Origin: a virus
Lineage: Duplodnaviria; Caudoviricetes
DNA length: 54,648 nucleotides
Strand: one strand, 5' to 3'
Virus record (IMG/VR): IMGVR_UViG_3300025433_000326
Location: 1-54,648 of that record
The notes under the pieces are model-generated. The model did not search any database. It worked only from the letters and a program-made list of their open reading frames with translations, and was not told the origin of the DNA. Both the position numbers and the translations under genes were made by a program. Shown piece after piece: positions 1-39,429 of the stretch. Position 1 is the first letter of the stretch. Each line of letters begins with the position of its first letter.

Positions 1-183
1 GCGCCAGCGGTGGCCCAGGGCCGGCTCATCAGGCCTCCAGCGGTCGTGCCAATGGGCAATCGCGGCATAGGCCTCAGGGGGCCAGCCGGCGGCATCACCC
101 AGTTGCTGCAACGCCTTCAGCTCGGCCGCGGCCGCGTGTGTCGGCTTGATCGCCGGCTCTCCCTTAGGGGCGAGCAGCGGCAC
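1..183 (-). CDS. hypothetical protein, runs off window start
   Basis: Open frame from GTG at 183 (VPLLAPKGEPAIKP...HRWR) to the window edge; its 5' part is duplicated at 409-480. Confidence 0.35.
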   Translation of the reverse strand, partial: MPLLAPKGEPAIKPTHAAAAELKALQQLGDAAGWPPEAYAAIAHWHDRWRPDEPALGHRWR

Positions 184-207
184 ACTTGCGCTATTGTTGG
201 ACCAATT

Positions 208-264
208 CCATCCCGATTTAGGGATGGTGGCTTCACGGGTTGCCCCCCGTGAAGCAGGTAAAAT
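208..264 (+). promoter_or_regulatory. two palindromes plus -10 box (copy 1)
   Basis: CCATCCC-N6-GGGATGG (208-227), CTTCACGGG-N6-CCCGTGAAG (231-254), TAAAAT (259-264). Confidence 0.55.
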
Positions 265-270
265 CAAGGG

Positions 271-379
271 GGGAATCTCCTTTGATGTCCCCAGCTGCCT
301 GCGGTCCTAGTCGCCAAACAAAGAAACGCAGACGCTGGGAGGAATAGTGAGAGGGGGCCTTTCGGGGCCCTTTCTTTTT
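271..379 (+). ncRNA. putative small RNA 1
   Basis: Non-coding stretch between a -10 box and an intrinsic terminator; internal hairpin CCCAGC..CTGCG/CGCAG..GCTGGG; 5' CTCCTTTG. Confidence 0.55.
350..379 (+). terminator. intrinsic terminator
   Basis: AGAGGGGGCCTTTCGGGGCCCTTTCTTTTT: GC stem-loop followed by a U tract. Confidence 0.8.
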
Positions 380-504
380 GGTCAGTTGGTCGGCATAGAG
401 ACGCCGAGCGCCTTCAGCTCGGCTGCGGCCCTATGTGTCGGCTTGATCGCCGGCTCGCCCTTAGGGGCGAGCAGCGGCACACTTGCACTATTGTTGGACC
501 AATT

Positions 505-561
505 CCATCCCGATTTAGGGATGGTGGTTTCACGGGGTGCAACCCGTGAAGCAGGCAGAAT
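505..561 (+). promoter_or_regulatory. two palindromes plus -10 box (copy 2)
   Basis: Near-identical palindrome arms to 208-254 with a changed spacer (GTGCAA vs TTGCCC); CAGAAT at 556-561. Confidence 0.5.
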
Positions 562-567
562 CAAGGG

Positions 568-661
568 ATTTTTCCTTTGGTTGAGCCGGTTCGGAGTTCG
601 AGCTCCTGCCGGTGATCTGTTTTCTGAAACGAGAGGGGGCCCTTCGGGGCCCTTTCTTTTT
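568..661 (+). ncRNA. putative small RNA 2
   Basis: Same promoter/terminator frame with a different core; hairpin CCGG..GGAG-TTCGAG-CTCC..CCGG; 5' TCCTTTG. Confidence 0.55.
632..661 (+). terminator. intrinsic terminator
   Basis: GGCCC-TTCG-GGGCC stem with cUUCGg loop and a U tract. Confidence 0.85.
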
Positions 662-663
662 GG

Positions 664-843
664 TCAGTTGGTCGGCATAGAGACGCCGAGCGCCTTCAGG
701 CCAGAGCGCAAGAGATCCGAATCAGGGATGCAGGCCCCGCGCTGCTCATGGGCAAAGTGCCAGGGGCAAATCCAAAGCCGGCGCCGACTCTCACGAAGGA
801 AGAGATCGCTGGGATCAAAGAGAACAGCGATGCTGGCCCGCAC
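664..843 (-). CDS. small hypothetical protein
   Basis: GTG at 843 is in frame; the gene ends ...LKALGVSMPTN next to the terminator. Confidence 0.35.
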   Translation of the reverse strand: MRASIAVLFDPSDLFLRESRRRLWICPWHFAHEQRGACIPDSDLLRSGLKALGVSMPTN

Positions 844-924
844 ATTCGATGCCAATGCCGAGGAGTATTGGGTGGTCTGGGATCGTTCTATTGTGGTTGC
901 AGCCAGAGATCCCCAGCTCGACGC

Positions 925-1146
925 ATGAACACCCGCCCCCCAGACGTAAGCCACACCCTCGCCGTGGTGGTTGGATACCTGCGCCGAGGCCCCACGACGC
1001 GGCGGCGCTTCCTTGCGCTGATCGAATCGGCGCCCAACTATCAGCAGCTGCACCTCCAGGCCCAGGGCGAGGGCCTTTACGCTTCCCCGGCCGCGGCTGA
1101 AGAAGCAGCAGCGGCGATGGGCCTGGCGATCGAAGCAACGGCCTGA
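925..1146 (+). CDS. hypothetical phage protein
   Basis: ATG at 925 in the 748..1146 frame; closely followed by the next gene. Confidence 0.55.
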   Translation: MNTRPPDVSHTLAVVVGYLRRGPTTRRRFLALIESAPNYQQLHLQAQGEGLYASPAAAEEAAAAMGLAIEATA

Positions 1147-1154
1147 GCCGCCGC

Positions 1155-1403
1155 ATGTTTCACCGGTTGTTGGTTTCGCCAATGCAGAACGTGGTGGCGA
1201 TCCACTGCAATTTCAACGAGGCTGGCGATCAACTGAAGGTGGGGATGCTGGTGGTTGAGGCCGGCACCATCTCTTCCGACGTGCTGGTGTCACCGCCGAC
1301 CGGCGGCGCGGCCTTCTATCTGGCCTTGCCTGAGGATGTTCTCAATGCAGGGCAGCGCTACGTTGGGTGGCAGATCAGTTCCCCAATCAGGCCAGCCGCA
1401 TGA
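1155..1403 (+). CDS. hypothetical phage protein
   Basis: 82 aa; its stop overlaps the next start (ATGA). Confidence 0.6.
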   Translation: MFHRLLVSPMQNVVAIHCNFNEAGDQLKVGMLVVEAGTISSDVLVSPPTGGAAFYLALPEDVLNAGQRYVGWQISSPIRPAA

Positions 1404-2035
1404 GCGTCAGCAGCAGAATCCTGGCCACCTTCCGCACCGATTACAAGGTGCTGGGGCCGTTCCGGTTGGCTGTCTACGGCAAATTGCTCCAGGGTGAAGC
1501 GGAGCTGCTCGAGCAACAGCAGCGTGATCAGACCGTCACCTATGGCGCCTACATCCGCCTCACTCAATCCATTGCCAGGGAGACAGGTCTGCCGATTGAG
1601 GATGTTGACCAAATCATTGCTCAGTTCCAGACCAGCAGCGACATCAACGACACCCAGGCGATCAATGAGAAGCTCAAAGCGCTTGGAGCTCTGAGCAGCG
1701 ATGCCCAGGAGTTCAGCGCTTTCCTGAACAGTCAGGCGCTGCTGAGTGATCACAAGCGAACGCTGGTGACAGCGCTGCTGCTTGGTCGCGCTGAATACAT
1801 GGCCGCGGAAGATGAGTCTGAGGAATGGATTCATCTCAAGCGTGGCGAGTGGGACATGGAAGACACCCGGAAATTGCCGAAACCCATGGTGGATGAGCTC
1901 CATGACTTCCTGATGGGCGAGCGAGCTGCGCAGGTGGAAGCGGGAAAGCCGCCGGAGATGAAGGCCCAGAAGAGGCCCCGAACGACCAAACTCTCACCCG
2001 CGACGAACAGCTCGCCCGCATTGACGCCTTCCTGA
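1400..2035 (+). CDS. tail assembly chaperone (gpG-like)
   Basis: Lies just upstream of the tape measure gene; ATGA-coupled start; contains in-frame G GGA AAG. Confidence 0.8.
   Translation: MSVSSRILATFRTDYKVLGPFRLAVYGKLLQGEAELLEQQQRDQTVTYGAYIRLTQSIARETGLPIEDVDQIIAQFQTSSDINDTQAINEKLKALGALSSDAQEFSAFLNSQALLSDHKRTLVTALLLGRAEYMAAEDESEEWIHLKRGEWDMEDTRKLPKPMVDELHDFLMGERAAQVEAGKPPEMKAQKRPRTTKLSPATNSSPALTPS
1942..1948 (+). other. programmed -1 frameshift slippery site GGGAAAG
   Basis: Phased G-GGA-AAG, identical to the lambda G/T site. The -1 frame is stop-free from 1948 through 2071..2439. Confidence 0.85.
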
Positions 2036-2439
2036 GCACCCCTCCTACTGATTGGGATGAGATCCAGCTGGTGCTCACCAGCGGGCTCACCCATGATCCC
2101 CGCTGGCAGGCCGATCGATTCCACCTCCAACCGGTTGACGCCGTTCTGAAGGCCTACGGCTGGGCCCTGAAAGAGAAGGCGAAGCGCACCAATGAGCTGA
2201 GCACCACCACGGCCCGGCTGGCGGTGCTGGTGGAGATGGCCGGCTTCCCAGGGTTGGGCAGCAAAGGCCGCACAGAGGAACAGTTCCTGCCGTTTGACAT
2301 CCGCGACGCCGACAGCCAGCGGGCCCAGCGGCTCACGCCAGAGGTGGCCGCCACAATCCGTTCCCTGCTTCGTGATGGCCAACTGCCGCTCCGGGTGCTG
2401 GTGCTGGCAGTGGAAGAGCTCGAGCGCTCCAAACTCTGA
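1948..2439 (+). CDS. gpT-like part of the G-T frameshift fusion (fusion spans 1400..2439)
   Basis: The -1 frame reads AAGDEGPEEAPND...ERSKL and directly precedes the tape measure gene. Confidence 0.8.
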   Translation, partial: AAGDEGPEEAPNDQTLTRDEQLARIDAFLSTPPTDWDEIQLVLTSGLTHDPRWQADRFHLQPVDAVLKAYGWALKEKAKRTNELSTTTARLAVLVEMAGFPGLGSKGRTEEQFLPFDIRDADSQRAQRLTPEVAATIRSLLRDGQLPLRVLVLAVEELERSKL

Positions 2440-2457
2440 CGCCGTTGCGGCCTCAGA

Positions 2458-5400
2458 ATGGTTTCAAGACAAGGTGAACGTTTGACCAGCAGCGGCGGGG
2501 GCGGCGGCGAATACACCCTGGGTACAGCCACCCTGACCCTTAGGGGCGACCTGAAGCCGCTTGAGGCTGACCTGGCCAAGATGCGGCGGATGATCGCCGA
2601 CATGGAGCGGCGGCAGACCAACATTCCGGCGCCCAAGATCCCGCCGCCTTCCGCTGAAACCCAGAGCGGGTTTGATCGGCTGCAGGGCACGTTGGAGCAG
2701 CTCCGCAAAGGGATCACTGGCGACAGCTCAGCCTGGGACGCAATGGCGGCTCGCCTGAAAGGCGCCGGCGCTGCTGGTGCCGGCGCGGCTGGTGGAATCG
2801 GCGGTGCTGGCGCCGCGCTCGGCAGCATGGTGGGCATGGCCGGGAAGGCGATCCCGATCCTCGGCCAGCTCGGCCTGGCGGCAGCGGGCGTCAAGGTGGT
2901 GTTTGGCGCGGTTTCGACAGCGATCGGCGCCGTGATCGGCCCGCTTCAGGCGCTGACCGCTGAGACGGCGCTGTTCAACCGGCAAATGAATGAAGCTGGG
3001 GCCGTGATGGCAAACCAGTTCGCTATTTTTGCTGATGGAAAGATCGTTGAAGGCACCGCCCGCCAGATGAGAATGGTCCGTGGCACTATTCTCGACGAAT
3101 ACAAATACATCCAGAAGGAAGTAGCTAATATCAGCGGCTCTACAGCAGCTCAGATATACGATAGCTTCAACATCATAATGACCCACAGCAACAGCTTGGG
3201 GGATAAAGGCACCCCGCAGAACGCTTCCAAGCTTGCTACCCGCATCGCGGCAGGTATGAACACGTTTGGGATCCCGCAAAACCAGATGATGCAGGAGACA
3301 AACGCTCTGATGATGGGCAACATCGATCCCAACGCGATGCTGGCCCAGAAGTTGGAGATCACATCTTCTGATGTAAAGGAACAGCAGAAGCAGGGCAAAT
3401 ATTACGACTTTTTGATGGGGAAGCTTGAAACCCTCTACGAGGGCCAGAAGGAGCTGGGGGTGAGCCTTCAGAACGTGATGAGCAATTTCGAGTCCGTCAG
3501 CCAGACGATCACGGCGAAATCAGGCGTTGCGCTGGAGGCTTCTTCCGCCGCCATGCTTCAAACCGTGTTGACCACGTTCCAGAACCTGCAGTCCAGCTTT
3601 GAAATGCTGCTGTCATCGCTTGCTGAGGCGGTGGCCCCCCTGCTGGAGCTCATGGGCCCGGTGCTCTCTGTGCTGACTTCGATCGGCAGTGTCCTGGCCT
3701 CTGTTGGCGGGATGGCGCTTGATGTGATCGGCGCGGTGTCCGCGGTCGTGAAGTCTTCTCTCTTGGCGCCATTGGTGGCTGTGGCTAGGAGCATTGAGCT
3801 GATCGCCAAAGGAGCGGAACTTGCCGCAAAAATATTGTCAGATGGCTTTGATTCAATAAAGGTCGCTCTTGGCTTCTTCCCCGACGAATCAGCTGATGGC
3901 GTCAACAAGTTCTTCGACAATCTGATCGGTGGCATTGAGCAGGCCGGCGAGTCCCTGGACCGCGCCCGCCTGGATCGCTTGCAGAATCAGCTCGGCAATG
4001 GGCTGGGCAGGATCCGAACACAAGGGGAGGCGGAGGGGCTCTCTGAGTTCGCCATCAAAGAGCGCCAGGACAAGTTCCGTGACGACTTCATTGAGCGGAC
4101 CGGCCTCGTTACTGATGTTGAGCTCCGCAGCCTCAAGCTCTCAAAAGAGGCCCAGGCCGATCTGGACGCCTTCAACGCTGCGCTGGGCACCGGATCAACC
4201 CGTGCCCTGAACGTGTCCAAGCAATGGGCCGAGATCAAGACCAAGGGCTACCAGAACGAGATCAAGAGCTTGGAGCAGGGCCTTGGCCTGATGACCCGGC
4301 AGAAGGCCGTTGCGGAGGCCATGGCCGCCGTTGCCGATGCCCGCCGCGCTTTCACCGCCCACGGCTTCGAGCTTGGTGTCCAGGTGTCGGCATCACCAGA
4401 AGCCAAGGCCGCGGCAGTAGCCCGCCTGAACAATCTCAAGTTTGAGCAGGAGAAGGAAGCGATCCAGGAACGGAAGGGCCTGCTGCAATCCGAGCGGGAG
4501 ATGCAGCAGCGGCAGATGGCGATCCAAGAGAAGCAGCTGCTGATCCAACAGGAGCAGCTCAAAATCGCGGTGGTTGAGGCAGAGAACAGTCGAAACAAAG
4601 GCAAGGAGACGACTCAGGAGCTGCTGCGCAAGCGCGGAAACACCCGCTTTGGCACCCCCGCCTATTTCGCCGTCACTGCAGAGCTGAACGCCCAGATGGC
4701 CCGCACCACCCGGGACAACGCCATCCTCAATCACGCCAAAGAGGCCCGCCGCCTGGGCTTTGAAGCGATCAGTCAACTGGGCACCATCAACAGCCTCGAG
4801 CAACAGCGCATGGACCTGCAGCTGGAGCAGCTTGGCCTTCAGGAGCAGGGCGCCCAGTACACCCTGGAGCAACAGCGCCTGATGGTCGAGATTGCCGCCG
4901 CTGGCCAGGACATCGCCAACACCATGGCCGCGGCGAACAATGAAGCCACCGCCCGCAACAACGAGCTCAACAACGAGAAAGCAACAATCCAGGATCAGTT
5001 GGCCCTTCAGGCTGAGCAGGTGAGGCTCGACAAGGCCCGCACTGACCTGGCCATCACCCGCGGCCGCGCTGCGGTTCAGGAAGCAGAGCGGCTGCAGTCA
5101 GTCCAGCAAGCGCAGGCCAGCGCCCGGAGCGGTGGCGGCGTGGTGGCCGTGGTCGAAGCACAGATTGCGGCGGCCGCGGCTGGTGTGACGGGAATGGAAA
5201 CCGCCGCCGAGGCGCAGGAACGGCTCTATGCCGCGAAGGAAGCGCAGATGGAGCGCGAGCATCGGATGCAGCAAGAACAACTGCGCATCCAGCAGCTGCG
5301 CGAGCAATCTGAGCTGCGCATTCAGCAGCTCACACTTCAAAGCCAACAGGTGGAGATCACCTTGGCGCGGGCAAAGATGACCGCCACCCTGGCCACCATC

Positions 5401-7584
5401 GCGTTGGCCAGGCAACAGGACGCCCTCGGTGCGGCGATCCCTGGGCAGGGCTCAGTGCCAGGCCTGGGCAGCAGCGGCGGCGGCGCCGTCTTTGGAGCCA
5501 CAGACGGCGGCACCGGCCGCGTCAGCAATGCCGAGGGCTACGTCCATGGTCACTTCCAGACATCTGGCACCCTCGCCGAGCTGCTGGAGGATGTCTTGCC
5601 TGTCGTCAACCAGCTGATCGAGCAAGGGGTAGACGTGACCCTGATGGACGGCACCCCGCTGAGCCGCGGAATGTCCGACCAACAGATCAAGGGCCTGCTG
5701 CGGAAAGGGGCCGGGCAGCACGGCCACAGCGGTGATGGTCGATCGCTGGATCTTTCGGTGCCGGTGGGAACCGCTGTGCCGGTGGGTCTGTCTGACGTGC
5801 GCACCGCCAACAACACCGCTGACGGGATCAACGGGCTGCTGCCAGGGAGCGGGAAGACGTGGCTCAGCCATCTGGCGCCGGGCTCAACGGGTGGAGCCGG
5901 CGCCAGCACCGCATCAGCGACCCCCGCAGCCTCGAACATCGATCCCAAAATCCTGGCGGCGGCCGCGGCGGCTTACAAGGCTGGCTTCAGGGGTGAGGCT
6001 CTGGCCGAAATCACGGCGGTGGCTTTTGCCGAGAGCAGCTACGACCCCACCGAAACCAACATGAAGGGCGGAGATCGCAGCTATGGGCTGTGGCAAATCA
6101 ACATGAAGGACGGCACGGGGCCAGAGCGCCGGCAGCGGTTTGGCCTGGCCAGCAATGAAGACCTGTTTGATCCAGACGCCAATGCTCGCGCTGCTTTTGG
6201 CCTCTGGCAGGATCGAGGCTTCCAGCCCTGGCGAAACAGCCATGGCAATGCCAACTACATGGCGGCCCTGCCTGAGGCGCGGCAGGCGGCGGCCTGGGCG
6301 GAAGGTGGTGGCACGGTCGGCGCTGCTGGGGTGGGCCCAAGCCTCGATCAACAGCAAGCTGCAGCAGAAGAGCAGGGCCAGCAACTCGACACCGCCGAAG
6401 CCCGGCTGAACGAGTTGCTGGCGCAGATAACGACGTTCTTCGAGATGCTCAACAACCGCCAGAGCCTGGGGCAAGAAAACATGACGGAGGCGCAGCTGGC
6501 CGAACGCCAGCAGTTTGACTTTGAGCAGGAGACGGATCGACTCCGCGCCCTAACGCTGGAAACCCCCACCGGCCAGTTGGCGGCCAGCAGCACGCAGGCG
6601 ATCACCGACAGCATTGCCGGATCCATCAAAGGCGGCCTTCAGGCCCTGATGAGTGGCGGCGACATCAAGCAGGCGCTGCTTGGTGTGCTCAGCCAGGCCG
6701 GCCAGACGCTGATGGAGGCCACCGTCGATTCCTTGCTCAACCCCATGCTGGCGCAGCTGCAGGGGCAACTGTTCAAGACGCTGAGCGGCGTGGACATAGA
6801 AGCAGTGGCACTGCAAAACGCTGCCGGTGCTCACGTAACCGCGGCTGGTGCATTGATGAATGCAGCGGCGGCCATCGGCGCCGCTGCGGCCGGCACGGGT
6901 GCCGCTGGTGGGGTGAGTGGCATCAGCCAGGCCTTCAGCACGGTCAGCAAGCTGGCATCGCTGGCCGGCGGCCTGGGTGGCGGCATCAGTGCCGGCATTC
7001 AGAGCGCTGGGGCGGCAGCTGGCGCAGCAGCGTTTAATTCCATCGTTCCGATTGGTGTTCAACCGTTCACCGCCGGCTTTGCCGGTGGCGGTGAGGCGCG
7101 CTACGGCCTTGACTACCTTGTAGGGGAAGGAGGCCCTGAAATCGTGCGCTTCAATCGCTCCGGCGGCAAGGTCACCAGCAACCGGCAATTGAGCCAGGCG
7201 CTTGGTGTTCCCTTTCAGCGCGCCCCGGGCGGCAAGGCAGAAGTGGCAGGCGAAACCCTGGGGATGGGCACCCCTGGCGTTCCGTTCGCTCGCACCGTCA
7301 GAAACTCCGCATCACCCGCAACCCCTGGCGTTCCGTTCATCAGGCCCAGCGGGGGAGAGCGCAGCGGCGTTCCGTTCATCAGGCCCGGCGGGGGAGAGCG
7401 CAGCGACGTGGCCAGCGCCCGCCGGCTGCAGATTGGCATTGAAACCCAGGTGATCAATGGCGTCGAGTACGCCACGGTGGAGCAGGTGCGGCAGGCGGCC
7501 AATGAATCCGCCGAGGCCGGCCGAGAGTCCGCCTACACCGGCATCCAGAACAACCCCAGCGTTCGGCGCGCCCTGGGGATGTAA
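2458..7584 (+). CDS. tape measure protein with M23-like and lytic transglycosylase domains
   Basis: About 1700 aa, Ala/Gln-rich coiled coil, N-terminal LGTATLTLRGD, SLT motif AESSY...SYGLWQIN, C-terminal FAGGG...VGEGGPE. The start may be TTG 2482. Confidence 0.92.
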   Translation: MVSRQGERLTSSGGGGGEYTLGTATLTLRGDLKPLEADLAKMRRMIADMERRQTNIPAPKIPPPSAETQSGFDRLQGTLEQLRKGITGDSSAWDAMAARLKGAGAAGAGAAGGIGGAGAALGSMVGMAGKAIPILGQLGLAAAGVKVVFGAVSTAIGAVIGPLQALTAETALFNRQMNEAGAVMANQFAIFADGKIVEGTARQMRMVRGTILDEYKYIQKEVANISGSTAAQIYDSFNIIMTHSNSLGDKGTPQNASKLATRIAAGMNTFGIPQNQMMQETNALMMGNIDPNAMLAQKLEITSSDVKEQQKQGKYYDFLMGKLETLYEGQKELGVSLQNVMSNFESVSQTITAKSGVALEASSAAMLQTVLTTFQNLQSSFEMLLSSLAEAVAPLLELMGPVLSVLTSIGSVLASVGGMALDVIGAVSAVVKSSLLAPLVAVARSIELIAKGAELAAKILSDGFDSIKVALGFFPDESADGVNKFFDNLIGGIEQAGESLDRARLDRLQNQLGNGLGRIRTQGEAEGLSEFAIKERQDKFRDDFIERTGLVTDVELRSLKLSKEAQADLDAFNAALGTGSTRALNVSKQWAEIKTKGYQNEIKSLEQGLGLMTRQKAVAEAMAAVADARRAFTAHGFELGVQVSASPEAKAAAVARLNNLKFEQEKEAIQERKGLLQSEREMQQRQMAIQEKQLLIQQEQLKIAVVEAENSRNKGKETTQELLRKRGNTRFGTPAYFAVTAELNAQMARTTRDNAILNHAKEARRLGFEAISQLGTINSLEQQRMDLQLEQLGLQEQGAQYTLEQQRLMVEIAAAGQDIANTMAAANNEATARNNELNNEKATIQDQLALQAEQVRLDKARTDLAITRGRAAVQEAERLQSVQQAQASARSGGGVVAVVEAQIAAAAAGVTGMETAAEAQERLYAAKEAQMEREHRMQQEQLRIQQLREQSELRIQQLTLQSQQVEITLARAKMTATLATIALARQQDALGAAIPGQGSVPGLGSSGGGAVFGATDGGTGRVSNAEGYVHGHFQTSGTLAELLEDVLPVVNQLIEQGVDVTLMDGTPLSRGMSDQQIKGLLRKGAGQHGHSGDGRSLDLSVPVGTAVPVGLSDVRTANNTADGINGLLPGSGKTWLSHLAPGSTGGAGASTASATPAASNIDPKILAAAAAAYKAGFRGEALAEITAVAFAESSYDPTETNMKGGDRSYGLWQINMKDGTGPERRQRFGLASNEDLFDPDANARAAFGLWQDRGFQPWRNSHGNANYMAALPEARQAAAWAEGGGTVGAAGVGPSLDQQQAAAEEQGQQLDTAEARLNELLAQITTFFEMLNNRQSLGQENMTEAQLAERQQFDFEQETDRLRALTLETPTGQLAASSTQAITDSIAGSIKGGLQALMSGGDIKQALLGVLSQAGQTLMEATVDSLLNPMLAQLQGQLFKTLSGVDIEAVALQNAAGAHVTAAGALMNAAAAIGAAAAGTGAAGGVSGISQAFSTVSKLASLAGGLGGGISAGIQSAGAAAGAAAFNSIVPIGVQPFTAGFAGGGEARYGLDYLVGEGGPEIVRFNRSGGKVTSNRQLSQALGVPFQRAPGGKAEVAGETLGMGTPGVPFARTVRNSASPATPGVPFIRPSGGERSGVPFIRPGGGERSDVASARRLQIGIETQVINGVEYATVEQVRQAANESAEAGRESAYTGIQNNPSVRRALGM
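7329..7404 (+). repeat. 39-bp in-frame tandem duplication in the tape measure C-terminus
   Basis: GVPFIRP(S/G)GGERS occurs twice; two further GVPF motifs lie upstream. Confidence 0.85.
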
Positions 7585-8054
7585 TGGCCGTTCAGCTCTG
7601 CGCCTACATCGTGTTCGTGGATGCAAGCGGCACCCCACAGGTGGGTTATGCCTGGCAGAACTTCTGGGCTGGTCAGCTGCGCAGCTACGACGGTCGGGAT
7701 CACGTCTTCATGGGATTCCGCATCAGCGATTCGGCTGGCGCCCGCGGCGGTGATCGATCACAAGGCGAGCTCAGAGTCAACCGGAATCAGCTCGCGCTCA
7801 ACGTGTTGGCAGAGGCCCGGGCCAATGCCTGGAAGATCCGCGCCGATATTGTGGTGGTCGATGTTGTCGCCGGCAGCGACGTGCGGCTCCTGTCCAGGCA
7901 CAACTGGCGGCTGGGGCCGATCGAGCGGCAGGCCTCCATCCGGGTGCAGCTGACCAGCCCCTTGGACGCCGTGCGTGGCGACGCCCCCCGCCGCCGGCTC
8001 AGCACTGAACTGGTTGGCCAGGTGCCAGATACCGGCTCCCTGTTTATCGCATGA
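7584..8054 (+). CDS. minor tail protein (gpL-like position)
   Basis: Coupled to the tape measure gene and precedes the NlpC/P60 gene. Confidence 0.65.
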   Translation: MAVQLCAYIVFVDASGTPQVGYAWQNFWAGQLRSYDGRDHVFMGFRISDSAGARGGDRSQGELRVNRNQLALNVLAEARANAWKIRADIVVVDVVAGSDVRLLSRHNWRLGPIERQASIRVQLTSPLDAVRGDAPRRRLSTELVGQVPDTGSLFIA

Positions 8055-14606: not shown

Positions 14607-17600
14607 ATGGCCCGGATCAGTCTGGCGAACGCCGCATCGGGGATTCTCAACGCTTTTGGCCCCAGCGGTCAGGCCAGGGCAAAACCCCAACTTGCAGCGA
14701 TGGCGGATCTGCTGCGCCAGCTCGTTGGAGATGCGAACGTCGCGCCGGGTTCAGGGGAATCGATAGACCCGTTGCAGGCCCCCTTCACCCTTTACGTCAA
14801 CCCGTTCATCGGAAGTGATCAGTTTGTAGCTGGCTATTACAACAGCTTCGAGACTACGGGCACTGATCAGCAGATCATTGACCAGAAGCTGAAGAGGATC
14901 AGCAACCAGCAGATGACCTGCGGCTACAGCGCGCACCGGCCATTCCGCACCATCAACCGAGCGCTGCTGGAAGCTGTCATTATCACCTCCAGGAGTTACT
15001 ACACGTTCGCATCGGCTGCCGCGCAGGTTGATTGCGTTCGTGTGTGCCTGTCTGATGCACAGCACCTTTATTACACAGAACCGCCAACTGGTACGCCCAC
15101 GGTTTGGACTGATGGCTACACGCCTACGAAAGCCGATCTGATCAATTTCAACCCAGCTGGTGGGGGCGTTATCGCACCTCGATACACGTCAATTTCAGGC
15201 AACGACTACCGCAAGTGTGTCATCCGACCCTCCTGGACGCCGCCGGCTGCTGACCTGGCTGCCGATTACTCCAATGCTGTGGCATTGCTGCAGGTTACCA
15301 CCAGCGCCTACTTCCGTGAGATCACGTTCCAGGACAAACTGGGGCAGAACGAATCCGATCACCTTGCTTATTGCTCTGGCCCGGCAAGCGCCGCCGCCCT
15401 AGATGCCCTCTACGCCAAGGCCCTAGCAGCGTTCGGCACCGTGGCCGATCTGAACCCGGCGCTGGTGGTAACCCGCCCAACCGAATACGAAACCGTGGGA
15501 CCATTCCCCGGCAACCCACAGCTGTCATGGGACACTGTTGTGGGGGCAAGTCCTTATATCTTGAACTGCGCCAATCGCTCTCAGTGGGGCCGTGGCGGAG
15601 TGCTTTGGGATGGCGCCAAGTTGGGTGGCCTGAAATCGTTTGTCACCGCTCAGTTCACCAATACGAGCGAACAGAACGACGTCAATTCCTGGGAGGTTTA
15701 TAACGGCAGCAACTGGGTAACTCCAGCGGATTACGACGCCCTGATTGCGGCTGATCCCAATGATACCCGCGCCAAGTTTGCTCGTAGTTCCCGGCACATA
15801 ACCTGCATCAATGATGGCTTTGTTCAGGAAGTCAGCATCTTCGCTATTGGCACCAACTACCACAACCTTGTTGATACTGGCGGGGAGATCACCAGCTCTA
15901 ACGGAAACAACACGTTTGGTGGTTGTGGGGCGTTGGCAACTGGCTATAAGTCTGCCGCCTTCCCGCAAGATAAGAACTGGGACACAAGTGCAGTATCAGT
16001 ACCGCTGACGCCTTCAGTCAAGACCAACAACATCCGCCGGATCTTTATCGGGACTGTTTCGGAGGTTTATACTGACGATGGCGGTCTGATACTGGAGGGG
16101 CCGGCTGATATTACATCACTTGAGGCGTCAGGCTATAGCCTCGCCCCTGGCACTCAAATATGGTGCGAAACCCCTGCGGATCTCACTGATCCAGTCAGGG
16201 CTACGCTGAATGGATCGCCGTTCAACCCGGCTTTCCCTGACACCATCGGCTTTGTTACAGGCGGTGGCAACAACTTCCCAGCCGATGGCGTGGGCATGGT
16301 TGGGCGACGTGTCTATGTGCGCCGCCTGGTAGACATCAGGGCCACAAGCGAACGCCGCGCTGAATTGGTACTAGGCAATACTGCCAACAGCCGCATCCCT
16401 GAAACCAATTTTGTCCTGCAAACTGACCCGTCCAGGACGGGAGCAGGGGCACTGTTTAATGCCACAACTGAAGTTCTGACTTGCTACAGCTCAAGCAAGA
16501 CATTCCTTTCGGGGATTGACCTAGCCGTCCGCGTTGTTGTCCAGCAGGGCTCTTACGCCGCCAACTACGCCAACGGCGGATATTACAGGGCTGGGCAGAT
16601 AGTCTCCTACGCCAACAAAAAGTGGATGGCCCTGCTGGATGGCTACTCCGTAGGCACTCCACCGCCAGAAGACCGGTGGGGGCAAACGCATGTCCACACG
16701 CAATCAGGCTTCATCCCCGAGGGCATTGCTGGCGCCGAGGGTTTTCCGATCGTATTCGACACCGACACCGACACAGCAGTTATCAGCACCACTTTGGGAA
16801 TCAATTGGGGAACGATTTTCACTAGCTCCGGCTCTGTCCGTGATCAATACCGCTCCGGCCCTGACTATCTCGGCCTCCATGCCTTCCTGCGGGCGCTGGG
16901 CTTCAGCGATGCCAACGCCCACACCGCGCTCCTGCCCCGCGTGGAGGCTGATCGGCAGCTTGATCCGACCTCGGCCACCGACTTTCCCACGGCCCCATCT
17001 GGAGGGGCTGCTACAGGCCGCGCCAATTGGCCGCTGGAGTTCCGCCGCCCGAGCACATTGCGTCTCAGCAACCATACCTGGGAGTGGTCTGGATGGGGAA
17101 ATTATAGCAAAGCCTTGCCTATTGCGCAGAAGCCGCTATCAGCGCAAAACAGGTTTTCTTACTACTTCACCAACACCGCAGGGGGCCGTGTAGTACCCGC
17201 CGGAGAAAATGAAGATGGTTACAGGGTATCCCCCCGAGGACTGGAGAACATTCAGACTGGGGCGATCCTTGCGGTTAATGACATTCAAGGTGGGCCGCTG
17301 GATGCTCCGCTTGCATTTGACCCGAATCCAACATTTGGCAATTTAACCGTCACAAATAGCCTTGACATCAGGGGGGCCACTTTCCTGACTGATGATGGCC
17401 CATACCTACCTGTTATTGGTGATGCGACCGCTGAAGTGAGGCTGCGCAGGCTAGGGATAAACGCAGATGATGACCCCGATTTTGATCTGTTCCTGAATGG
17501 CTCCGCCAGGGGCAATGTTGTTGACCTCGGAAGTGGTACTGCAATCAACTGCCAACTGGGTAACTATTTCACCCGAGCCATGGCTGGCAACCTGACCTTT

Positions 17601-17810
17601 ACGTTTGTCAATCCACCAGCTGTTGGTCGATTCTCTTTTAGCCTCCATATTGTCTATACAAGCGGTACTCTCACGTTCCCTGCGAGCTTGCGCCACGTAT
17701 TCGACATCTTGCCAGACCTAATAGCAGGTCAAACCTACTTGTTCGTTATCAGCACCATTGACGGCGGCACCCGCTGGCTTTGTGACACCCGTAACTGGCC
17801 GACAGCATGA
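14607..17810 (+). CDS. tail fibre / tailspike
   Basis: 1067 aa; TLYVNP...PFRTINRAL head followed by a beta-helix-like region; C-terminal GNYFT...STIDGGTRW module. Confidence 0.75.
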   Translation: MARISLANAASGILNAFGPSGQARAKPQLAAMADLLRQLVGDANVAPGSGESIDPLQAPFTLYVNPFIGSDQFVAGYYNSFETTGTDQQIIDQKLKRISNQQMTCGYSAHRPFRTINRALLEAVIITSRSYYTFASAAAQVDCVRVCLSDAQHLYYTEPPTGTPTVWTDGYTPTKADLINFNPAGGGVIAPRYTSISGNDYRKCVIRPSWTPPAADLAADYSNAVALLQVTTSAYFREITFQDKLGQNESDHLAYCSGPASAAALDALYAKALAAFGTVADLNPALVVTRPTEYETVGPFPGNPQLSWDTVVGASPYILNCANRSQWGRGGVLWDGAKLGGLKSFVTAQFTNTSEQNDVNSWEVYNGSNWVTPADYDALIAADPNDTRAKFARSSRHITCINDGFVQEVSIFAIGTNYHNLVDTGGEITSSNGNNTFGGCGALATGYKSAAFPQDKNWDTSAVSVPLTPSVKTNNIRRIFIGTVSEVYTDDGGLILEGPADITSLEASGYSLAPGTQIWCETPADLTDPVRATLNGSPFNPAFPDTIGFVTGGGNNFPADGVGMVGRRVYVRRLVDIRATSERRAELVLGNTANSRIPETNFVLQTDPSRTGAGALFNATTEVLTCYSSSKTFLSGIDLAVRVVVQQGSYAANYANGGYYRAGQIVSYANKKWMALLDGYSVGTPPPEDRWGQTHVHTQSGFIPEGIAGAEGFPIVFDTDTDTAVISTTLGINWGTIFTSSGSVRDQYRSGPDYLGLHAFLRALGFSDANAHTALLPRVEADRQLDPTSATDFPTAPSGGAATGRANWPLEFRRPSTLRLSNHTWEWSGWGNYSKALPIAQKPLSAQNRFSYYFTNTAGGRVVPAGENEDGYRVSPRGLENIQTGAILAVNDIQGGPLDAPLAFDPNPTFGNLTVTNSLDIRGATFLTDDGPYLPVIGDATAEVRLRRLGINADDDPDFDLFLNGSARGNVVDLGSGTAINCQLGNYFTRAMAGNLTFTFVNPPAVGRFSFSLHIVYTSGTLTFPASLRHVFDILPDLIAGQTYLFVISTIDGGTRWLCDTRNWPTA

Positions 17811-26721: not shown

Positions 26722-27621
26722 TCAAGTGGGGCAACTGGGATCTGATTGCTGCTGCCCTGGTGCTGGCGCGGTGCGGGTGACATCCACGGTGCGCTGTGGC
26801 TGGCCGACTGTCCGCGGAGCGGCCTGCGGCCCTGGCGGGCGCTGGGCCACCGGTGCTGGGCGCGTGGCTGGCGACGGGTTGCCTTGTGGTTGAGGCCGCC
26901 CGCCCTCGTCCCTTCTGCTGCTTTCCTCGTTGAAATCGTCATCACGATCAGCCGCAAGGCCCAGCACCATCTGCAGCGCCAGCCGGCGGGCTGTTGTAAG
27001 GCCTGCAGAGTGTGATTGCCCTGGGGAGCGATCGGATGACCCAGGGAACAGCGGCACCGGGCCCCCGCTGACGGCGCCGCCATTCGCATGGATCAGGTAA
27101 GCGGTAATCACCGGATCGCCGCTGTCGCTCAGCTCTTGCCTGGTGATCGCCGCCAGCCCAAAAGCCGCAGCAAGCTGCCCTGCCGCAATGACGGCGGCCA
27201 GGTCGGCATAGCCGTACTCGACTAGATCCCCTTTCTTGGTCCTGTAACCAGCGAAACGGTTCTCGGCCAGGTGGGGCTTTGTCGCATGCCAGGCGGCGAA
27301 GGCCTTGAAGAGCTCTACCTGCTGCTCCGGGAGCGGCTTGTAGCCAAGGAAATCCACCAGCCGCGCCTGCTGGTCATCACTGCCTGAGGGGGCGGCCTGG
27401 CTCAGGGCCATCTCTTGGACCTTGGAGTTCAGATCACCGAAGGCCTTGCGCGCACCAGCGAGCTGGGTCTGGAGGGTTTGAATCTCGGCGGCGTGACCAG
27501 CAACGGCCGCGGCCACGTTGGAGATCAGATCATCCGTGCCCTGAACGGAGCCATCTTGCTGCTGGGGCGGCTGCTGGCCGGCCTCCGGCGGCAGGGCGCC
27601 TGGGGTGTCTTGCATGTTCAC
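26722..27621 (-). CDS. erf: ERF-family single-strand annealing protein
   Basis: YGYADL, G LTTARRLALQMVLGLAA.DDD motif. Confidence 0.8.
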   Translation of the reverse strand: MNMQDTPGALPPEAGQQPPQQQDGSVQGTDDLISNVAAAVAGHAAEIQTLQTQLAGARKAFGDLNSKVQEMALSQAAPSGSDDQQARLVDFLGYKPLPEQQVELFKAFAAWHATKPHLAENRFAGYRTKKGDLVEYGYADLAAVIAAGQLAAAFGLAAITRQELSDSGDPVITAYLIHANGGAVSGGPVPLFPGSSDRSPGQSHSAGLTTARRLALQMVLGLAADRDDDFNEESSRRDEGGRPQPQGNPSPATRPAPVAQRPPGPQAAPRTVGQPQRTVDVTRTAPAPGQQQSDPSCPT

Positions 27622-27991: not shown

Positions 27992-29635
27992 ATGAGCAGA
28001 GCAGAGCAGAACACGGGTGAAACCTTCCAGCTGGAGAGGCAGCGGTTTGTACTTCTACCTCTTGAACTTCTGGCCAGTTGTTCATCCAAGGCGCGAAAGC
28101 CGCTGGTCTTTGTTTATAGCTGGCTTTGGTATCACGCGGGGCAAATTGATTCGTATCCATCCGTATCTCGGCTGAGTTTGGAATGCGGGATGAGCATGGC
28201 CGACATCCGGGCAGCGATCAAGGAACTGCTGTTTGAGGGCTGGATCACGTGCAAAAAAACAACGGGCCCAAAAGGGGTGAAAACGTACCGGATCACGGCC
28301 GATTACAGCACCATAAAACGACCACGGAAGCAAAAAAAAGGCAGTTTTCCTCCCGCTGTCTCTCCAGTCCCTGACAGCGATTTGCCTATGCACCCCCTAC
28401 CCATGGGTACCCCCTACCCACAGGTACCCCCCCCTACCCATGGGTACCCCCTACCCACAGGTACCCCCCCCTACCCACAGGTACCCCCTAAACGGCCTGA
28501 AAATGACCCTCCAGGCACCCCCTTGCAATCGTCTGAAGCGTATAAAACAGCTGAGACTGATGCCCTAGCCTGGAATCTCAGCGATTCAAACCCTGAAAAA
28601 AAAGTTTTCCACAGGCCTGTTTTTGAAGGCTCCTGCGCGGCCTGTTCCTCAAAAAACGGTCACCCCGCGTCAACCGCTGAAACCTGTTCCTGTAGAAGGG
28701 ATCCCAGCGAAAGCCCAACACCTGAAACAGGGGGCTTGACACGTAAGATACCCTTAGAAGAATCTAGAATAGATTCTTCCTCTAACTCTTTATCTACTTC
28801 TAAGGTTACTTTCTTAAAACCATATAAGCTTGGTCATCAACAAAAACACGCTGCTAACGATTCAACGGCAGCGGCATGCGACCCCGACATAAGCAACCCA
28901 GGGCAAGTTCAGCCCGTCCCACCGCTCACCACCTTGCCGCCGCCGCAAATCGTGGTACAGTCGGCAAGCAACCTCACCGCTCCCCAGCAACATGATTCCC
29001 CACTCAGCTCCCTCCCACCCTGCGCAGAGCCGTACCGCCACCTGCTCGCCCAGTGGTGGGCCTCCCGCAGCTTCAGGCACCGAAGCCTCCAGCCTGATCA
29101 GCCTCTCGCCCAGGCCGACCTGGACGCCATCAGCCTCGCTCACGCTCACGGCGTCCTAGAGCCCTTCCTCGCACAAGCGGCCGCGGCCGGCTGGAAGTCT
29201 CTTGCCTATCGCGTCAAGATTCGCATCCAGCAGCTACAAGCAGGACCAGCAGCAGCCGCCGACTTTGATCGGCTCCGCTCCCAGTACCTCGCTGCTCCAA
29301 ATCGCGTTCCTTGTCAATCTCTGCCCCGTGCGCAGAAAGAGCTCGCCCTCATCCTCAAAGAGGGCTACTCCATTGACCAGATCCTCGCCGCGCTCACCGC
29401 TGAAACGGCTGCGCAAGCCGCAAAGCTCAGCAAAGCTGAGTTCTGCCCTTCCATGCCAGACATCGCTCGATGGCTCAAGGAACGCCGCTTTGCTGCCTAC
29501 ATCCAGGCCCCAACCTCAGAGCCGCGCATCCTCTCCCCTGCTGACTTCACCCATGCCATAGACGAAGACGGTGAGCCCGATCCCTTCGCTTACTCCAACT
29601 ACCTCGAAGCCTGCAAGCTACAGGGCCTCATCTGA
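27992..29635 (+). CDS. phage replication initiator (N-terminal wHTH)
   Basis: SYPSVSRLSLECGMS...IKELLFEGWI; internal iterons; C-terminal P..ARWL..RRF. Confidence 0.8.
   Translation: MSRAEQNTGETFQLERQRFVLLPLELLASCSSKARKPLVFVYSWLWYHAGQIDSYPSVSRLSLECGMSMADIRAAIKELLFEGWITCKKTTGPKGVKTYRITADYSTIKRPRKQKKGSFPPAVSPVPDSDLPMHPLPMGTPYPQVPPPTHGYPLPTGTPPYPQVPPKRPENDPPGTPLQSSEAYKTAETDALAWNLSDSNPEKKVFHRPVFEGSCAACSSKNGHPASTAETCSCRRDPSESPTPETGGLTRKIPLEESRIDSSSNSLSTSKVTFLKPYKLGHQQKHAANDSTAAACDPDISNPGQVQPVPPLTTLPPPQIVVQSASNLTAPQQHDSPLSSLPPCAEPYRHLLAQWWASRSFRHRSLQPDQPLAQADLDAISLAHAHGVLEPFLAQAAAAGWKSLAYRVKIRIQQLQAGPAAAADFDRLRSQYLAAPNRVPCQSLPRAQKELALILKEGYSIDQILAALTAETAAQAAKLSKAEFCPSMPDIARWLKERRFAAYIQAPTSEPRILSPADFTHAIDEDGEPDPFAYSNYLEACKLQGLI
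28393..28490. repeat. iteron-like repeats / probable origin
   Basis: Five units of C5-8-TACCCA-(TG/CA)GGTA (17/20 bp), with an AT-rich tract downstream at about 28740-28860. Confidence 0.75.
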
Positions 29636-32134: not shown

Positions 32135-32483
32135 CACCGAAAACCACACTGTTACCCAGGCTGTCCCTTATCTGCAACTCCAGACTTCTATCTACGGTGG
32201 CCGCTGGAAAGATGTTCCCATTGTCGAGCCTGAAGATGAAGAGGCGAGCTAATGACAACCAAACTTCTAAACGATTTAGCCAAGTGCGCAGTGCGCCGCG
32301 CCCATCTTTACGCTTACTCCCCTCGTTTCTGGCGTGAGGGCGCTGCTGCTTCCATTCTGTACGGCTTTTCTTGGCCTAAGGCTGAATTGCGGGGTATAGA
32401 AGAGTGACAGGGCAAGATGGTGTTGCCTGTCAGGCGAATGACACCTATTCCGCAACCCTCGAACACTCCACCAAACAAAAATC

Positions 32484-37887: not shown

Positions 37888-39429
37888 ATGGCATGGGATG
37901 ACAATGCGTGGGCTGAATACGACGCCAAGAATCGGGCCCTGATCACCCCCTACCAGTTCCCGCATCACGGCTTGCACCGCCCGCGCAAACGGGTGCAGCC
38001 CATCTTGCGGCACCTCCCGCGCAGGCCGCTCTTCACTGGATTGATCGGATCCAATCTGTGGGACAACCTGCCGAAGCAGTGGCCGCATTTCGCGGCGCGA
38101 ACAACAATTGCGTCTCAGGGGAAATACCTGCCCTTCATTCCCTGGGAGGTCCAGCTGGATCTGGTCCGAATGATTCGGAGCACCCAGAACGTTTACTGCC
38201 TGAAATCAAGGCAAACCGGCGTTTCCGAAACGGTCATCAATTACATGCTGATGATGGCCATTGAAAACCCAGCTTGGGTGGGCATCGTTTTCAGCAAGAC
38301 CGGCGAGGATGCGTCAGAGCTGGCGGCCCGCATCAAAGGCCAGGCGGCCAGCCTTGGTTCCTTCTGCCCGCCCCTGCCAAAGGATTCTGCCCGCAAGCTG
38401 CAATTCCTTGGCCGTGGATCGCTTCACTTTCTGCCGCCCACTGAACGAGCGGCCAGGGGAATCCCATCGGCCTCCATGGTCCTGTTCGATGAGGGCGCCT
38501 TCATTGAGAGGCTGAGCGGGATTGAAACCGGCGCCATGCCCACCCTGAGCCTCCTGGGCCCCAGGGCGCGGGCGGTGTGGGTCAGCACCCCCAACGGCCG
38601 CAGCGGCCGCTTCCATGAGCACTGGACCACTGATCACGGCGAAATCCCGCTAGGGCCGGCCACGGTGAACGGGATTCCAACCCTGGCCCGTTCACCCGAT
38701 GGTCAGTTCGGCAAGGTTGCGATCCACTGGAGCCAGCATCCAATCTTTGCCGCTGACCCTGACTACCAGGAGAAGACCAAGCGGAAGTTTCAGCTCACCC
38801 AGCAGCGCTACCAGCAAGAGTTTGAGCTCGACTTCACTGCCACCGATGCCGAGGTCTACCCGCACGAACTGATCGAGGCTGCTGAGGCCATCGGTGCCCT
38901 GGATGATCCAACCAGCGGGAACGTCTACGTGATCGGGATCGATCCCAACGGCGGCGCCGATGATGAGTTCGTGACCACGGTTCTGGACGTGACAGCCAGC
39001 CCCTGGCAGGTGGTGGCCCGGTTCAACGACTCGCGCCGCAGCAGGGATTACGGCCTGCAGCGCAGCGCCCGGCTGATTGACCAGTTCGCCCCGGAGCTGA
39101 TCGTCATCGAGAAGAACGGCGTGGGTGCTGCGGTGGCCGAGAGCCTGGCCCGGCTTCGCCCTGGATACCCGATCGAAGAGGTTGCCACCAGCCGGCCGTC
39201 GAAGGTCGCTATGACCGATCGGGTGCTGCTGCTGCTGGAGCAGGGCGAGCTGGGCCTGCCGCCCAACGACATCTACGGGGAACAGATGCGAGTCTTCCGC
39301 CAGCACCCAGACGGCACCCGCGAGGCCGCCGCTGGCGCGCACGATGATGCCGTGATGTCTCTGGCCATGGCCTGCGAGGCCGGCGCCCGCACCCGGCCGA
39401 TGGTGGCCGAATGGGTCAACATGACCTAG
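37888..39429 (+). CDS. terL: terminase large subunit
   Basis: LKSRQTGVSE (Walker A), VLFDEGAF (Walker B), STPNG, IGIDP, IEKNGVG, HDDAVMSLA. Confidence 0.95.
   Translation: MAWDDNAWAEYDAKNRALITPYQFPHHGLHRPRKRVQPILRHLPRRPLFTGLIGSNLWDNLPKQWPHFAARTTIASQGKYLPFIPWEVQLDLVRMIRSTQNVYCLKSRQTGVSETVINYMLMMAIENPAWVGIVFSKTGEDASELAARIKGQAASLGSFCPPLPKDSARKLQFLGRGSLHFLPPTERAARGIPSASMVLFDEGAFIERLSGIETGAMPTLSLLGPRARAVWVSTPNGRSGRFHEHWTTDHGEIPLGPATVNGIPTLARSPDGQFGKVAIHWSQHPIFAADPDYQEKTKRKFQLTQQRYQQEFELDFTATDAEVYPHELIEAAEAIGALDDPTSGNVYVIGIDPNGGADDEFVTTVLDVTASPWQVVARFNDSRRSRDYGLQRSARLIDQFAPELIVIEKNGVGAAVAESLARLRPGYPIEEVATSRPSKVAMTDRVLLLLEQGELGLPPNDIYGEQMRVFRQHPDGTREAAAGAHDDAVMSLAMACEAGARTRPMVAEWVNMT

Follow-up and report, generated by a model that had tools for sequence, protein, structure and literature searches.

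The window analysed here, which is the whole of IMG/VR record IMGVR_UViG_3300025433_000326 (54,648 bp, 60% G+C, labelled a provirus, estimated completeness 82%), is, as judged from its PHROG matches, siphovirus-like phage DNA. Near its left end it carries two tandem copies of a short cassette (positions 112-699) that very probably originated in cyanobacterial plasmids of the CyRepA1 replication family, as sequence comparison indicates. In those plasmids the same DNA lies directly in front of the replication gene (rep) and includes a leader open reading frame (ORF), here called Y, a core that differs between the two copies, and a terminator-like hairpin. The reading that we favour, although only tentatively, is that a plasmid replication-control module was copied into the phage and that putative small RNAs read from it act in trans on plasmids. 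That a counter-transcript to the Y leader exists is probable from the features of the DNA; that such RNAs act usefully in trans in the phage is a distinctly more doubtful proposition.

An initial annotation of this DNA, made from the letters alone, had described a duplicated cassette with near-identical flanks and unrelated cores, and this description holds. The flanks of the two units are 92-99% identical, and MAFFT found no alignable similarity between the cores, save GGG...TCCTTTG adjoining the repeat D1. The parts of the tandem, in which the repeats D1 and D2 were delimited by a repeat search, are as follows.

1-267, minus strand: leader ORF Y, copy 1, with a TTG start at 265-267; its first 89 codons lie in the window before the frame runs off the left end
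112-270 (copy 1) and 409-567 (copy 2): repeat D1, 159 nt, 92% identity, equal to Y codons 1-52
156-175, 208-227 and 230-255: hairpins of D1 copy 1
259-264, plus strand: -10-like hexamer TAAAAT of copy 1, within Y codons 2-3; read by eye, a candidate only
271-348, plus strand: core A, 78 nt, body of putative counter-transcript A, stem-loop at 290-339; its minus strand is the Y 5' leader
277-282, minus strand: Shine-Dalgarno (SD) sequence of Y copy 1, AAGGAG, 9 nt before the TTG
349-417 and 631-699: repeat D2, 69 nt, 99% identity, made up of a hairpin and the stop and last 11 or 17 codons of a 69-aa ribbon-helix-helix (RHH)-like gene
349-379, plus strand: putative terminator of copy 1, a GC-rich hairpin with a UUCG loop at 361-364 and the tract TTTCTTTTT at 371-379 (RNAfold and direct reading)
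382-417, minus strand: RHH-like remnant of copy 1, stop and last 11 codons, ...LKALGVSMPTN
409-417: tandem junction CGCCTTCAG, which in Y as well as in the RHH-like gene encodes Leu-Lys-Ala (minus strand)
453-472, 505-524 and 527-552: hairpins of D1 copy 2, the equivalents of those in copy 1 at +297
556-561, plus strand: -10-like hexamer CAGAAT of copy 2, weak
562-564: TTG of the truncated Y in D1 copy 2
568-630, plus strand: core B, 63 nt, body of putative counter-transcript B, stem-loop at 579-617
572-577, minus strand: SD of Y copy 2, AAGGAA, 7 nt before the TTG
631-661, plus strand: putative terminator of copy 2, with a UUCG loop at 643-646 and the T-tract at 653-661 (again TTTCTTTTT); its closing pair is C-G, against U.G in copy 1
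664-717, minus strand: RHH-like remnant of copy 2, stop and last 17 codons

On the minus strand the RHH-like remnant of copy 1 and Y codons 1-52 of copy 2 form one continuous frame, a 60-aa ORF at 382-564. The proposal that the tandem arose at a microhomology agrees with the position of the 9-bp CGCCTTCAG, which stands at 112, 409 and 691, the exact borders of the units, and at three further sites; the total of six in the window compares with 1.11 +/- 1.05 expected, and none of 100 shuffles reached six. The D2-D1 junction of the window was also found independently in another contig (L009, see below). Plasmid homology stops at about position 717, with phage DNA beyond.

Relatives of the cassette were collected with an exact 20-mer from hairpin 2, which gave one viral contig (L004) and 13 metagenome loci (L006-L018); L023 was added by a later genome search. 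The plasmid setting is clearest in L018, the minus strand of which holds, in succession, a 67-aa gene, the 69-aa RHH-like gene (ending ...LKALGVSMPTN), the hairpin, core A, Y and a 998-aa Rep with a GTG start. This Rep scores 277.5 bits on the NCBIfam model NF042913, CyRepA1 (cut-off 200), and carries DUF3854. It matches 207 plasmid records in PLSDB, where the organisms named among the matches listed are all cyanobacteria, and the CyRepA1 of plasmid pSYSA is among the first-listed matches, at 29.4% identity. In the window itself NF042913 has no match; it is present in plasmid contigs only. A ParA gene (L011 2290-2919, Pfam CbiA) and a HigBA-like pair, the latter read from ORF translations alone, also lie on plasmid contigs. 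Positions 12611-13115 of L018 correspond to positions 2665-3169 of the viral contig L004 over 505 bp at 99.0% identity. The shared segment runs from 4-5 nt before the Y stop and Rep start to 54 nt into the 69-aa gene, and thus comprises all but the last two codons of Y together with the core, the terminator and these 54 nt. It occupies a functional place in the plasmids, and the phage is therefore the recipient. What had been taken for a dedicated phage promoter/terminator cassette has flanks of plasmid coding and regulatory DNA, namely the 5' end of Y and the tail of the RHH-like gene.

Within the plasmids the module fronts different replication genes, and the small genes are co-oriented with rep in all lineages. 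Rep1 (L018, L013 and L016) and Rep2 (L017, L015 and L023) are 40% identical to each other, and in their control modules identity rises to 95-97%, over a stretch that begins 16 nt inside rep and takes in the RHH-like genes; Rep2 is accompanied by core A in L017 and by core B in L015 and L023. Distant plasmids keep the layout and have unrelated cores (L019, Rep 54% identical; L020, Rep 63%). One 26-kb metagenome contig, which comprises L017 and L018, carries both Rep2 (1046 aa) and Rep1 (998 aa), 14.1 kb apart and each behind a core-A module.

The leader ORF Y is, on the pattern of its substitutions, the existence of a homologue in L024 and the retention of its start signals, a real gene. Its full-length product has 113 aa in plasmids (L018 12606-12947), and its stop overlaps the Rep start as GTGA at L018 12606-12609 and also at L024 1495-1498. 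Between L018 and L017, Y has 11 substitutions downstream of D1; nine of the 11 fall at third codon positions (P=0.0014), with eight synonymous to three non-synonymous changes, and the antisense frame that shares third positions with Y contains two stops. The SD and the TTG are the sole leader features kept between cores A and B. The L024 homologue is a 126-aa ORF, 53% identical over the C-terminal 58 residues of Y (E 2e-18). It was one of two strong hits among seven matches at E <=0.001 when 301 genomes were searched, all from the order to which a related metagenome-assembled genome belongs; the two are G140 (96%, a B-type plasmid) and G133 (L024). The protein is rich in Trp and Arg, and its N-terminal 45-55 residues are not conserved and are predicted, at low confidence, to be disordered. 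Its AlphaFold model (predicted local distance difference test, pLDDT, 52.8) was unusable for a fold search, a search for homologous proteins returned a single cluster at 97% identity, and the ESM Atlas returned only clusters at 0.91 without annotation, in which the entry starts at Y residue 29 read as M, the gene caller having taken an internal GTG. In L020 an unrelated 175-aa ORF (1586-2113, plus strand) occupies the place of the leader; it overlaps Rep through ATGA and gives a weak DnaA_N-like match (PF23007, 21.7 bits against a cut-off of 27). The GTGA and ATGA overlaps would be expected to couple translation of the leader ORF to that of Rep.

Opposite Y, the plus-strand unit from the -10-like hexamer at 259-264 to the terminator at 349-379 is the exact complement of the Y SD (277-282) and 5' leader. 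A small plus-strand RNA with a 5' anti-SD stretch, one stem-loop and a terminator, as the initial annotation had it, is a reasonable reading of both cores, and the antisense role that it listed among several is the one to which this complementarity points. The TCCTTTG that it called anti-SD-like is indeed present; it is the complement of the actual SD of Y, because the putative RNA is cis-antisense. The T-rich tail of the hairpin lies on the strand opposite rep in all four lineages read (A/B, L019, L020 and L024), and the plasmids show no plus-strand gene upstream that the hairpin could terminate. A -10-like TAnnnT was seen by eye 95-110 nt upstream of the hairpin in A, L019 and L020. All five candidate RNAs (A, B, L019, L020 and L024) share one fold, in which a 5' stretch is followed by a long stem-loop and then by a terminator hairpin, with cores unrelated in sequence. 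Their folding z-scores are -0.9 (A), -2.96 (B; none of 200 shuffles as good), -1.1 (L019), -4.55 (L020) and -4.19 (L024). Duplexes of each RNA with its own leader reach -173 (A) and -129 kcal/mol (B), the complementarity being perfect because each RNA is cis-encoded. The A/B cross duplexes (-34.4 and -34.5), by contrast, are no better than those of shuffles (-32.1 +/- 4.7 and -35.7 +/- 4.7). Because of the opposed terminators, the common folding and the difference between cognate and cross duplex energies, A and B may be regarded as orthogonal counter-transcripts that would mask the Y SD.

It is reasonable to propose the following mechanism. A plus-strand RNA of about 95-110 nt would start from the -10-like hexamer in Y codons 2-3 and run through the complement of the SD and the core to the hairpin and T-tract. 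By pairing with the Y leader it would mask the Y SD and block translation of Y and, through translational coupling, the synthesis of Rep, which would be a form of copy-number control like that by CopA/tap/repA in R1 or by RNAII in pMV158. The two cores, A and B, would represent two non-cross-reacting specificity alleles. In the phage, expression of the RNAs might start at their own -10, or late transcripts that read in might carry them at the 3' end; the putative RNA genes are intact in all nine phage copies and point in the same direction as the late genes. They would then work in trans, as determinants of incompatibility, on resident plasmids of types A and B; among the genes of these plasmids are those for MmeI-like restriction-modification and for toxin-antitoxin systems. 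The boldest form of the proposal, that the phage uses plasmid copy-control RNAs as weapons that shut off Rep of two specificity types and so displace plasmids or block their establishment, is somewhat unlikely.

Including those of the window, 20 cassettes were found, 16 with core A and four with core B (window copy 2, L011, L015 and L023), and no third allele; L013 and L015 are cut inside the core and are still typable. The cores are therefore swappable between near-identical flanks, as had been suggested, in the form of two alleles; two alleles among 20 cassettes of close relatives do not make a hypervariable locus. Several contigs are 99.9% alike and possibly represent one population resampled, and the 20 cassettes are not independent; four indel-rich loci (L008, L010, L012 and L014) were excluded from base-level comparisons. 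Nine cassettes lie in phage DNA and 11 in plasmid-like DNA (L008, L010-L018 and L023). In L004, L007 and L009 the cassettes have phage DNA to their left and right; in the window and L006 only the right flank is phage DNA. The left phage flank contains a small ORF and the gene for a 344-aa protein that has a Big_5 Ig-like domain, and the right flank is the region of window 631-4128, with genes just upstream of ORF 2458-7584; the insertion has a structural gene with an Ig domain on one side and the tail chaperone/tape-measure genes on the other. Copy number varies among the phages, with one cassette in L004, L006 and L007, two in the window and four in L009. In L009 (original coordinates about 3400-5050) all four have core A, a block of two cassettes plus 390 nt of right flank (window 631-1020) having been duplicated; a second junction there joins window position about 1020 to about 133. 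Searches of viral contigs gave L004 only, both with the 222-aa neighbour protein and with the terminator pattern, and no match to the core B pattern; contigs from one DNA run (X1) contained only a plasmid-type single A cassette.

The initial annotation attributed the stacking of both cores to a crossover between two phage alleles. The alleles instead come from plasmids, B being found in L011, L015 and L023 and A in L013, L016, L017, L018 and others. Window copy 1 is nearest to L016 (99.3%), and D1 of copy 2 has one mismatch to the B-type plasmids L011 and L015, copy 2 as a whole differing from B plasmids at one base. The few polymorphisms of the phage copies recur, as a patchwork, in different plasmid variants, a sign of repeated exchange between phage and plasmid. 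The likeliest history would begin with the capture of one A unit by a phage, continue with its duplication at the 9-bp in-frame Leu-Lys-Ala microhomology, and end with conversion of the distal copy to allele B through recombination with a B-type plasmid.

A number of results weigh against the proposal of a phage-borne copy-control RNA. The A-B tandem rests on one assembly, and the left flank of the window is a contig end. The "promoter" is the weakest part of what had been described. Consensus scans for a -35/-10 sigma-70 promoter gave no site, the copy-2 hexamer is only CAGAAT and no -10 was seen by eye in L024. The terminators were not listed on the plus strand by the consensus scanner, which gave only the minus-strand reading of the copy-2 hairpin, probably because the stem was extended into the T-tract. 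The fold of RNA A does not stand out from those of shuffles, 36 of 200 of which are as good. The structure of D1, on the other hand, beats shuffles (z -3.6 and -4.8; none of 200 as good), and the region of L024 equivalent to D1, unrelated in sequence, is also highly structured (z -3.85). The putative RNA as drawn covers the leader and SD only, and D1 lies outside it; the real RNA may be longer, a more upstream start taking in D1 (Y codons 1-52), or D1 may be a DNA site. A cmscan of positions 1-1500 against Rfam, which the initial annotation had suggested, gave 12 weak matches at E up to 10 and no family near its gathering score, the top match being Atu_C8 at 21.7 bits against 50. Homologues of Y were found in no more than two lineages, and BLASTP found no similarity between Y and the L020 leader ORF, nor any alignment at E up to 100 with Ssr7036 (pSYSA ORF 32289-32483). 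The 69-aa gene is RHH-like by sub-threshold matches only (RHH_1 16.4-16.5 against 20.5 bits; RHH_5 21.3 against 26; RelB 19.7 against 50; VapB26 at E 0.38), its AlphaFold model has a pLDDT of 64, and the L018 and L020 RHH-like proteins show no similarity in BLASTP. The close relatives are 86-100% identical and come from few related metagenomes, so that the intactness of the phage copies is uninformative on selection. Finally, tandem terminators inside a late operon could equally burden the phage.

The same plasmid origin is compatible with a module that does nothing in the phage, the tandem then being a recombination scar acquired in a shared host and multiplied by neutral unequal crossing-over, possibly with help from an Erf-like protein, which the window encodes at 26722-27621. 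We regard this as a serious alternative, although not as the probable one. The module appears to be recombinogenic in general, given that it fronts two Reps only 40% identical; other phage-plasmid patches exist (L009 106-271 with L018 3937-4102 at 99.4%, and the ends of the MmeI-like gene with L013 at 94-96%); and the phage copies, at least 97% identical to plasmid copies, are too young to reveal selection. Against a mere scar, none of the points being strong, the captured piece is neatly bounded, from 4-5 nt before the Rep start to just past the terminator, the candidate RNA gene is whole in every phage copy, and four copies as well as two stacked specificities are what selection for dosage or breadth would be expected to produce. 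A related alternative sees the benefit on the plasmid side: the shared 505 bp would be a homology patch that allows phage-plasmid cointegrates and hence packaging and transduction of the plasmid. Homology is reportedly able to raise plasmid transduction, as described for SPP1 and lambda. A stretch of 505 bp at 97-99% identity is more than enough for homologous recombination, exchange is demonstrated by the patchwork of polymorphisms, and both the right (MmeI-like) and left (cassette) ends of the window continue into plasmid-like L013 sequence. No cointegrate contig, in which the cassette would link phage DNA to Rep or the RHH-like gene, was seen, however, and tandem copies with two cores would be left unexplained; this alternative seems quite improbable.

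That the phage captured an origin, or a Rep-binding or priming site formed by the D1 hairpins, and is replicated by a resident CyRepA1 or titrates Rep, is also unlikely. In its favour are the three strong hairpins of D1 and their structured counterpart in L024, with the z-scores given above, and the constant presence of D1 within the tandem unit; moreover, autonomous replication with CyRepA1 and CyRepA2 is reported to require, in cis, the region upstream of rep (PMC9978351, PMC10079941). The former report also describes few or no transformants when the pSYSA upstream locus alone was supplied with Rep in trans (PMC9978351). Further points on this side are that neither iterons nor an AT-rich stretch were seen in the repeat search, that the hairpins lie inside a coding region with third-position constraint for protein, and that the phage has an O-like initiator of its own (27992-29635). 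Least probable of all, and very improbable indeed, are other trans-acting roles for the RNAs, on host or phage mRNA, as an antitoxin mimic or as a decoy for defence systems, or a minus-strand sponge that raises plasmid copy number. An ectopic ssr7036 transcript raised the copy number of pSYSA 2.75- to 3.2-fold (PMC9978351), and a sponge is conceivable if the minus strand is transcribed; no minus-strand promoter was found in the phage context. The complementarity to plasmid leaders already accounts for both cores. The antitoxin-mimic and CRISPR or defence-decoy roles raised by the initial annotation find no counterpart in PADLOC (none of seven proteins), in a ToxN-type repeat array or in any Rfam toxin-antitoxin or CRISPR family at its gathering threshold, and Y is no small hydrophobic type I toxin and is always overlap-fused to Rep.

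Antisense control of plasmid replication is already known, and the plasmid system described here would be a new member. Among its closest parallels is pSYSA of Synechocystis PCC 6803, where the small ORF ssr7036 and an abundant antisense RNA precede the CyRepA1 gene (slr7037) and serve copy-number control (PMC9978351). The Rep family is the same (NF042913; 29.4% identity), a small ORF lies directly upstream of rep with a short antisense RNA, putative in the present case, opposite to it, and the upstream locus is needed together with rep (PMC9978351). The differences are as marked. Ssr7036 has 64 aa and no similarity to the 113-aa Y, and ssr7036 ends 164 nt before rep, whereas Y overlaps Rep by GTGA; asRNA1 (153 nt) is described as covering the ssr7036 coding sequence from its stop codon, whereas the putative RNA here covers the SD and leader. 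The plasmids studied here also have an RHH-like gene upstream, and their module occurs in a phage as well.

In plasmid R1 (IncFII; copB, copA/CopT, tap, repA), tap encodes a short peptide, and its translation is coupled to that of repA. The present system differs in its Rep, a primase-helicase unrelated to RepA, in an RNA without similarity by sequence or Rfam model, and in Y, which at 113 aa is conserved as a protein. Likenesses are an antisense RNA to the leader, putative here, a leader ORF with a translation that is, or here would be, coupled to that of rep, and a small gene upstream of and co-oriented with rep, in the present case a candidate repressor gene. The genes for CopB and CopG are co-transcribed with rep (PMC5717011). 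An RHH repressor gene upstream of rep is also found in pMV158 (copG, RNAII, repB), as stated there (PMC5717011), the corresponding protein here being RHH-like at sub-threshold scores. The RNAII of pMV158 is a very small counter-transcript with a single-stranded 5' tail complementary to the ribosome-binding site of rep, through which it acts, a hairpin and a U-rich 3' end, and it acts in trans as an incompatibility determinant (PMC4485353); the same is proposed here. However, pMV158 is a rolling-circle plasmid of Firmicutes, and its RNAII has 48 nt and one hairpin that serves as terminator too, whereas the candidates here have an extra stem-loop and a leader ORF. By sequence and structure they belong to none of the curated counter-transcript families of Rfam (CopA, RNAI, ctRNA_pND324 etc.), and the putative RNA thus resembles counter-transcript RNAs in its proposed working while standing outside their families. 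From the side of the phage, the cassette recalls the morons of lambdoid phages, units of promoter, gene and terminator that sit between late genes. It is likewise a short foreign unit with its own terminator, between two structural genes and variable in presence and copy number among close relatives, although its autonomous transcription is putative. Its cargo differs, being a putative non-coding plasmid control RNA and a truncated leader ORF rather than a protein-coding fitness gene, and its donor is identifiable at 99% identity.

The remainder of the window contains the following genes with PHROG or Pfam matches, together with endolysins, a ParB-like protein, a MuF-like head protein and methyltransferases.

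2458-7584, plus strand: 1708-aa ORF in tape-measure position, with an internal endolysin-like stretch (phrog_34252, residues 1006-1171) as its sole type of PHROG match
14607-17810: tail fibre
26722-27621: Erf-like annealing protein
27992-29635: O-like initiator
37888-39429: large terminase
39854-40735, minus strand: RNA polymerase sigma factor (phrog_351, E 2e-38), flanked by the terminase and portal genes
40841-42751: portal
51895-54648, minus strand: MmeI-like type IIL restriction-modification enzyme, 917 aa (Pfam MmeI_N, MmeI_hel, MmeI_Mtase and MmeI_TRD)

No tyrosine or serine recombinase (integrase, resolvase) was found in the window. A tRNA-derived attachment site in core B was considered and rejected, ARAGORN listing no tRNA or tmRNA gene in the window. 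The window lacks the capsid and major tail genes that L009 has to the left of its cassettes. The ends of the MmeI-like gene (51955-52293 and 53213-54648) are 94-96% identical to the plasmid copy in L013, and a middle part of about 920 nt, target-recognition domain included, is without DNA match, which looks like a swap of specificity domains between phage and plasmid copies. Two further stretches shared by L009 and L018 are far from the cassette, 106-271 with 3937-4102 (166 nt at 99.4%) and the oriented 106-496 region with 7566-7804 (239 nt at 94.6%). The right end of the window (54648) coincides with the TTG start of the MmeI-like ORF and resembles a trim at a gene edge. Position 1 is at no gene edge and lies inside a repeat common to other replicons; it is probably a contig end. 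To the right of the cassettes, 728-1146 (plus strand) contains small ORFs, of which a frame ending at 926-928 overlaps a 73-aa ORF (925-1146) via ATGA; the frame from 748 is protein-like for about 30 codons and then switches, which may reflect a frameshift or two short genes, without PHROG or PADLOC match. PHROGs gave no match to the small local ORFs. Two longer frames were rejected as genes. In the minus-strand ORF 664-1182, only the last 17 codons are the RHH-like tail, the remainder overlapping likelier plus-strand ORFs, and the plus-strand ORF 347-928 (193 aa, uninterrupted across copy 2) shadows the Y frame, with third codon positions in common; its counterpart left of D1 contains stops. 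In blastn, window 1-1500 had no match among INPHARED phages, nor had window 1-720 in PLSDB.

For metagenomics, the shared repeat has a practical consequence: the window, L006, L011, L013, L015 and L016, and so at least six contigs, terminate within it, and L007 ends 133 nt beyond. Such a repeat breaks metagenome assemblies and can mislead provirus boundary calls. For plasmid biology, the work offers a testable copy-control model for the CyRepA1 branch in picocyanobacteria-like hosts, in which an RHH-like gene, a counter-transcript and a Rep-coupled leader ORF would act together, unlike in pSYSA, the one CyRepA1 plasmid studied so far. The control module behaves as an exchangeable unit, with at least two putatively orthogonal specificities, in front of Reps 40% identical, and with further unrelated cores in distant plasmids. 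A full-text literature search in a limited collection found no report of a tailed phage with a plasmid antisense incompatibility determinant, nor of two specificities in tandem. If the module is non-functional in the phage, it nevertheless documents natural phage-plasmid recombination cleanly; if it is functional, it would represent a new route of phage-plasmid competition. The stacking of A and B and the four-copy amplification of A would, if the proposal of trans-acting RNAs is true, be moves in a phage-plasmid arms race, and cis-antisense incompatibility determinants would be a transferable currency of conflict between mobile elements.

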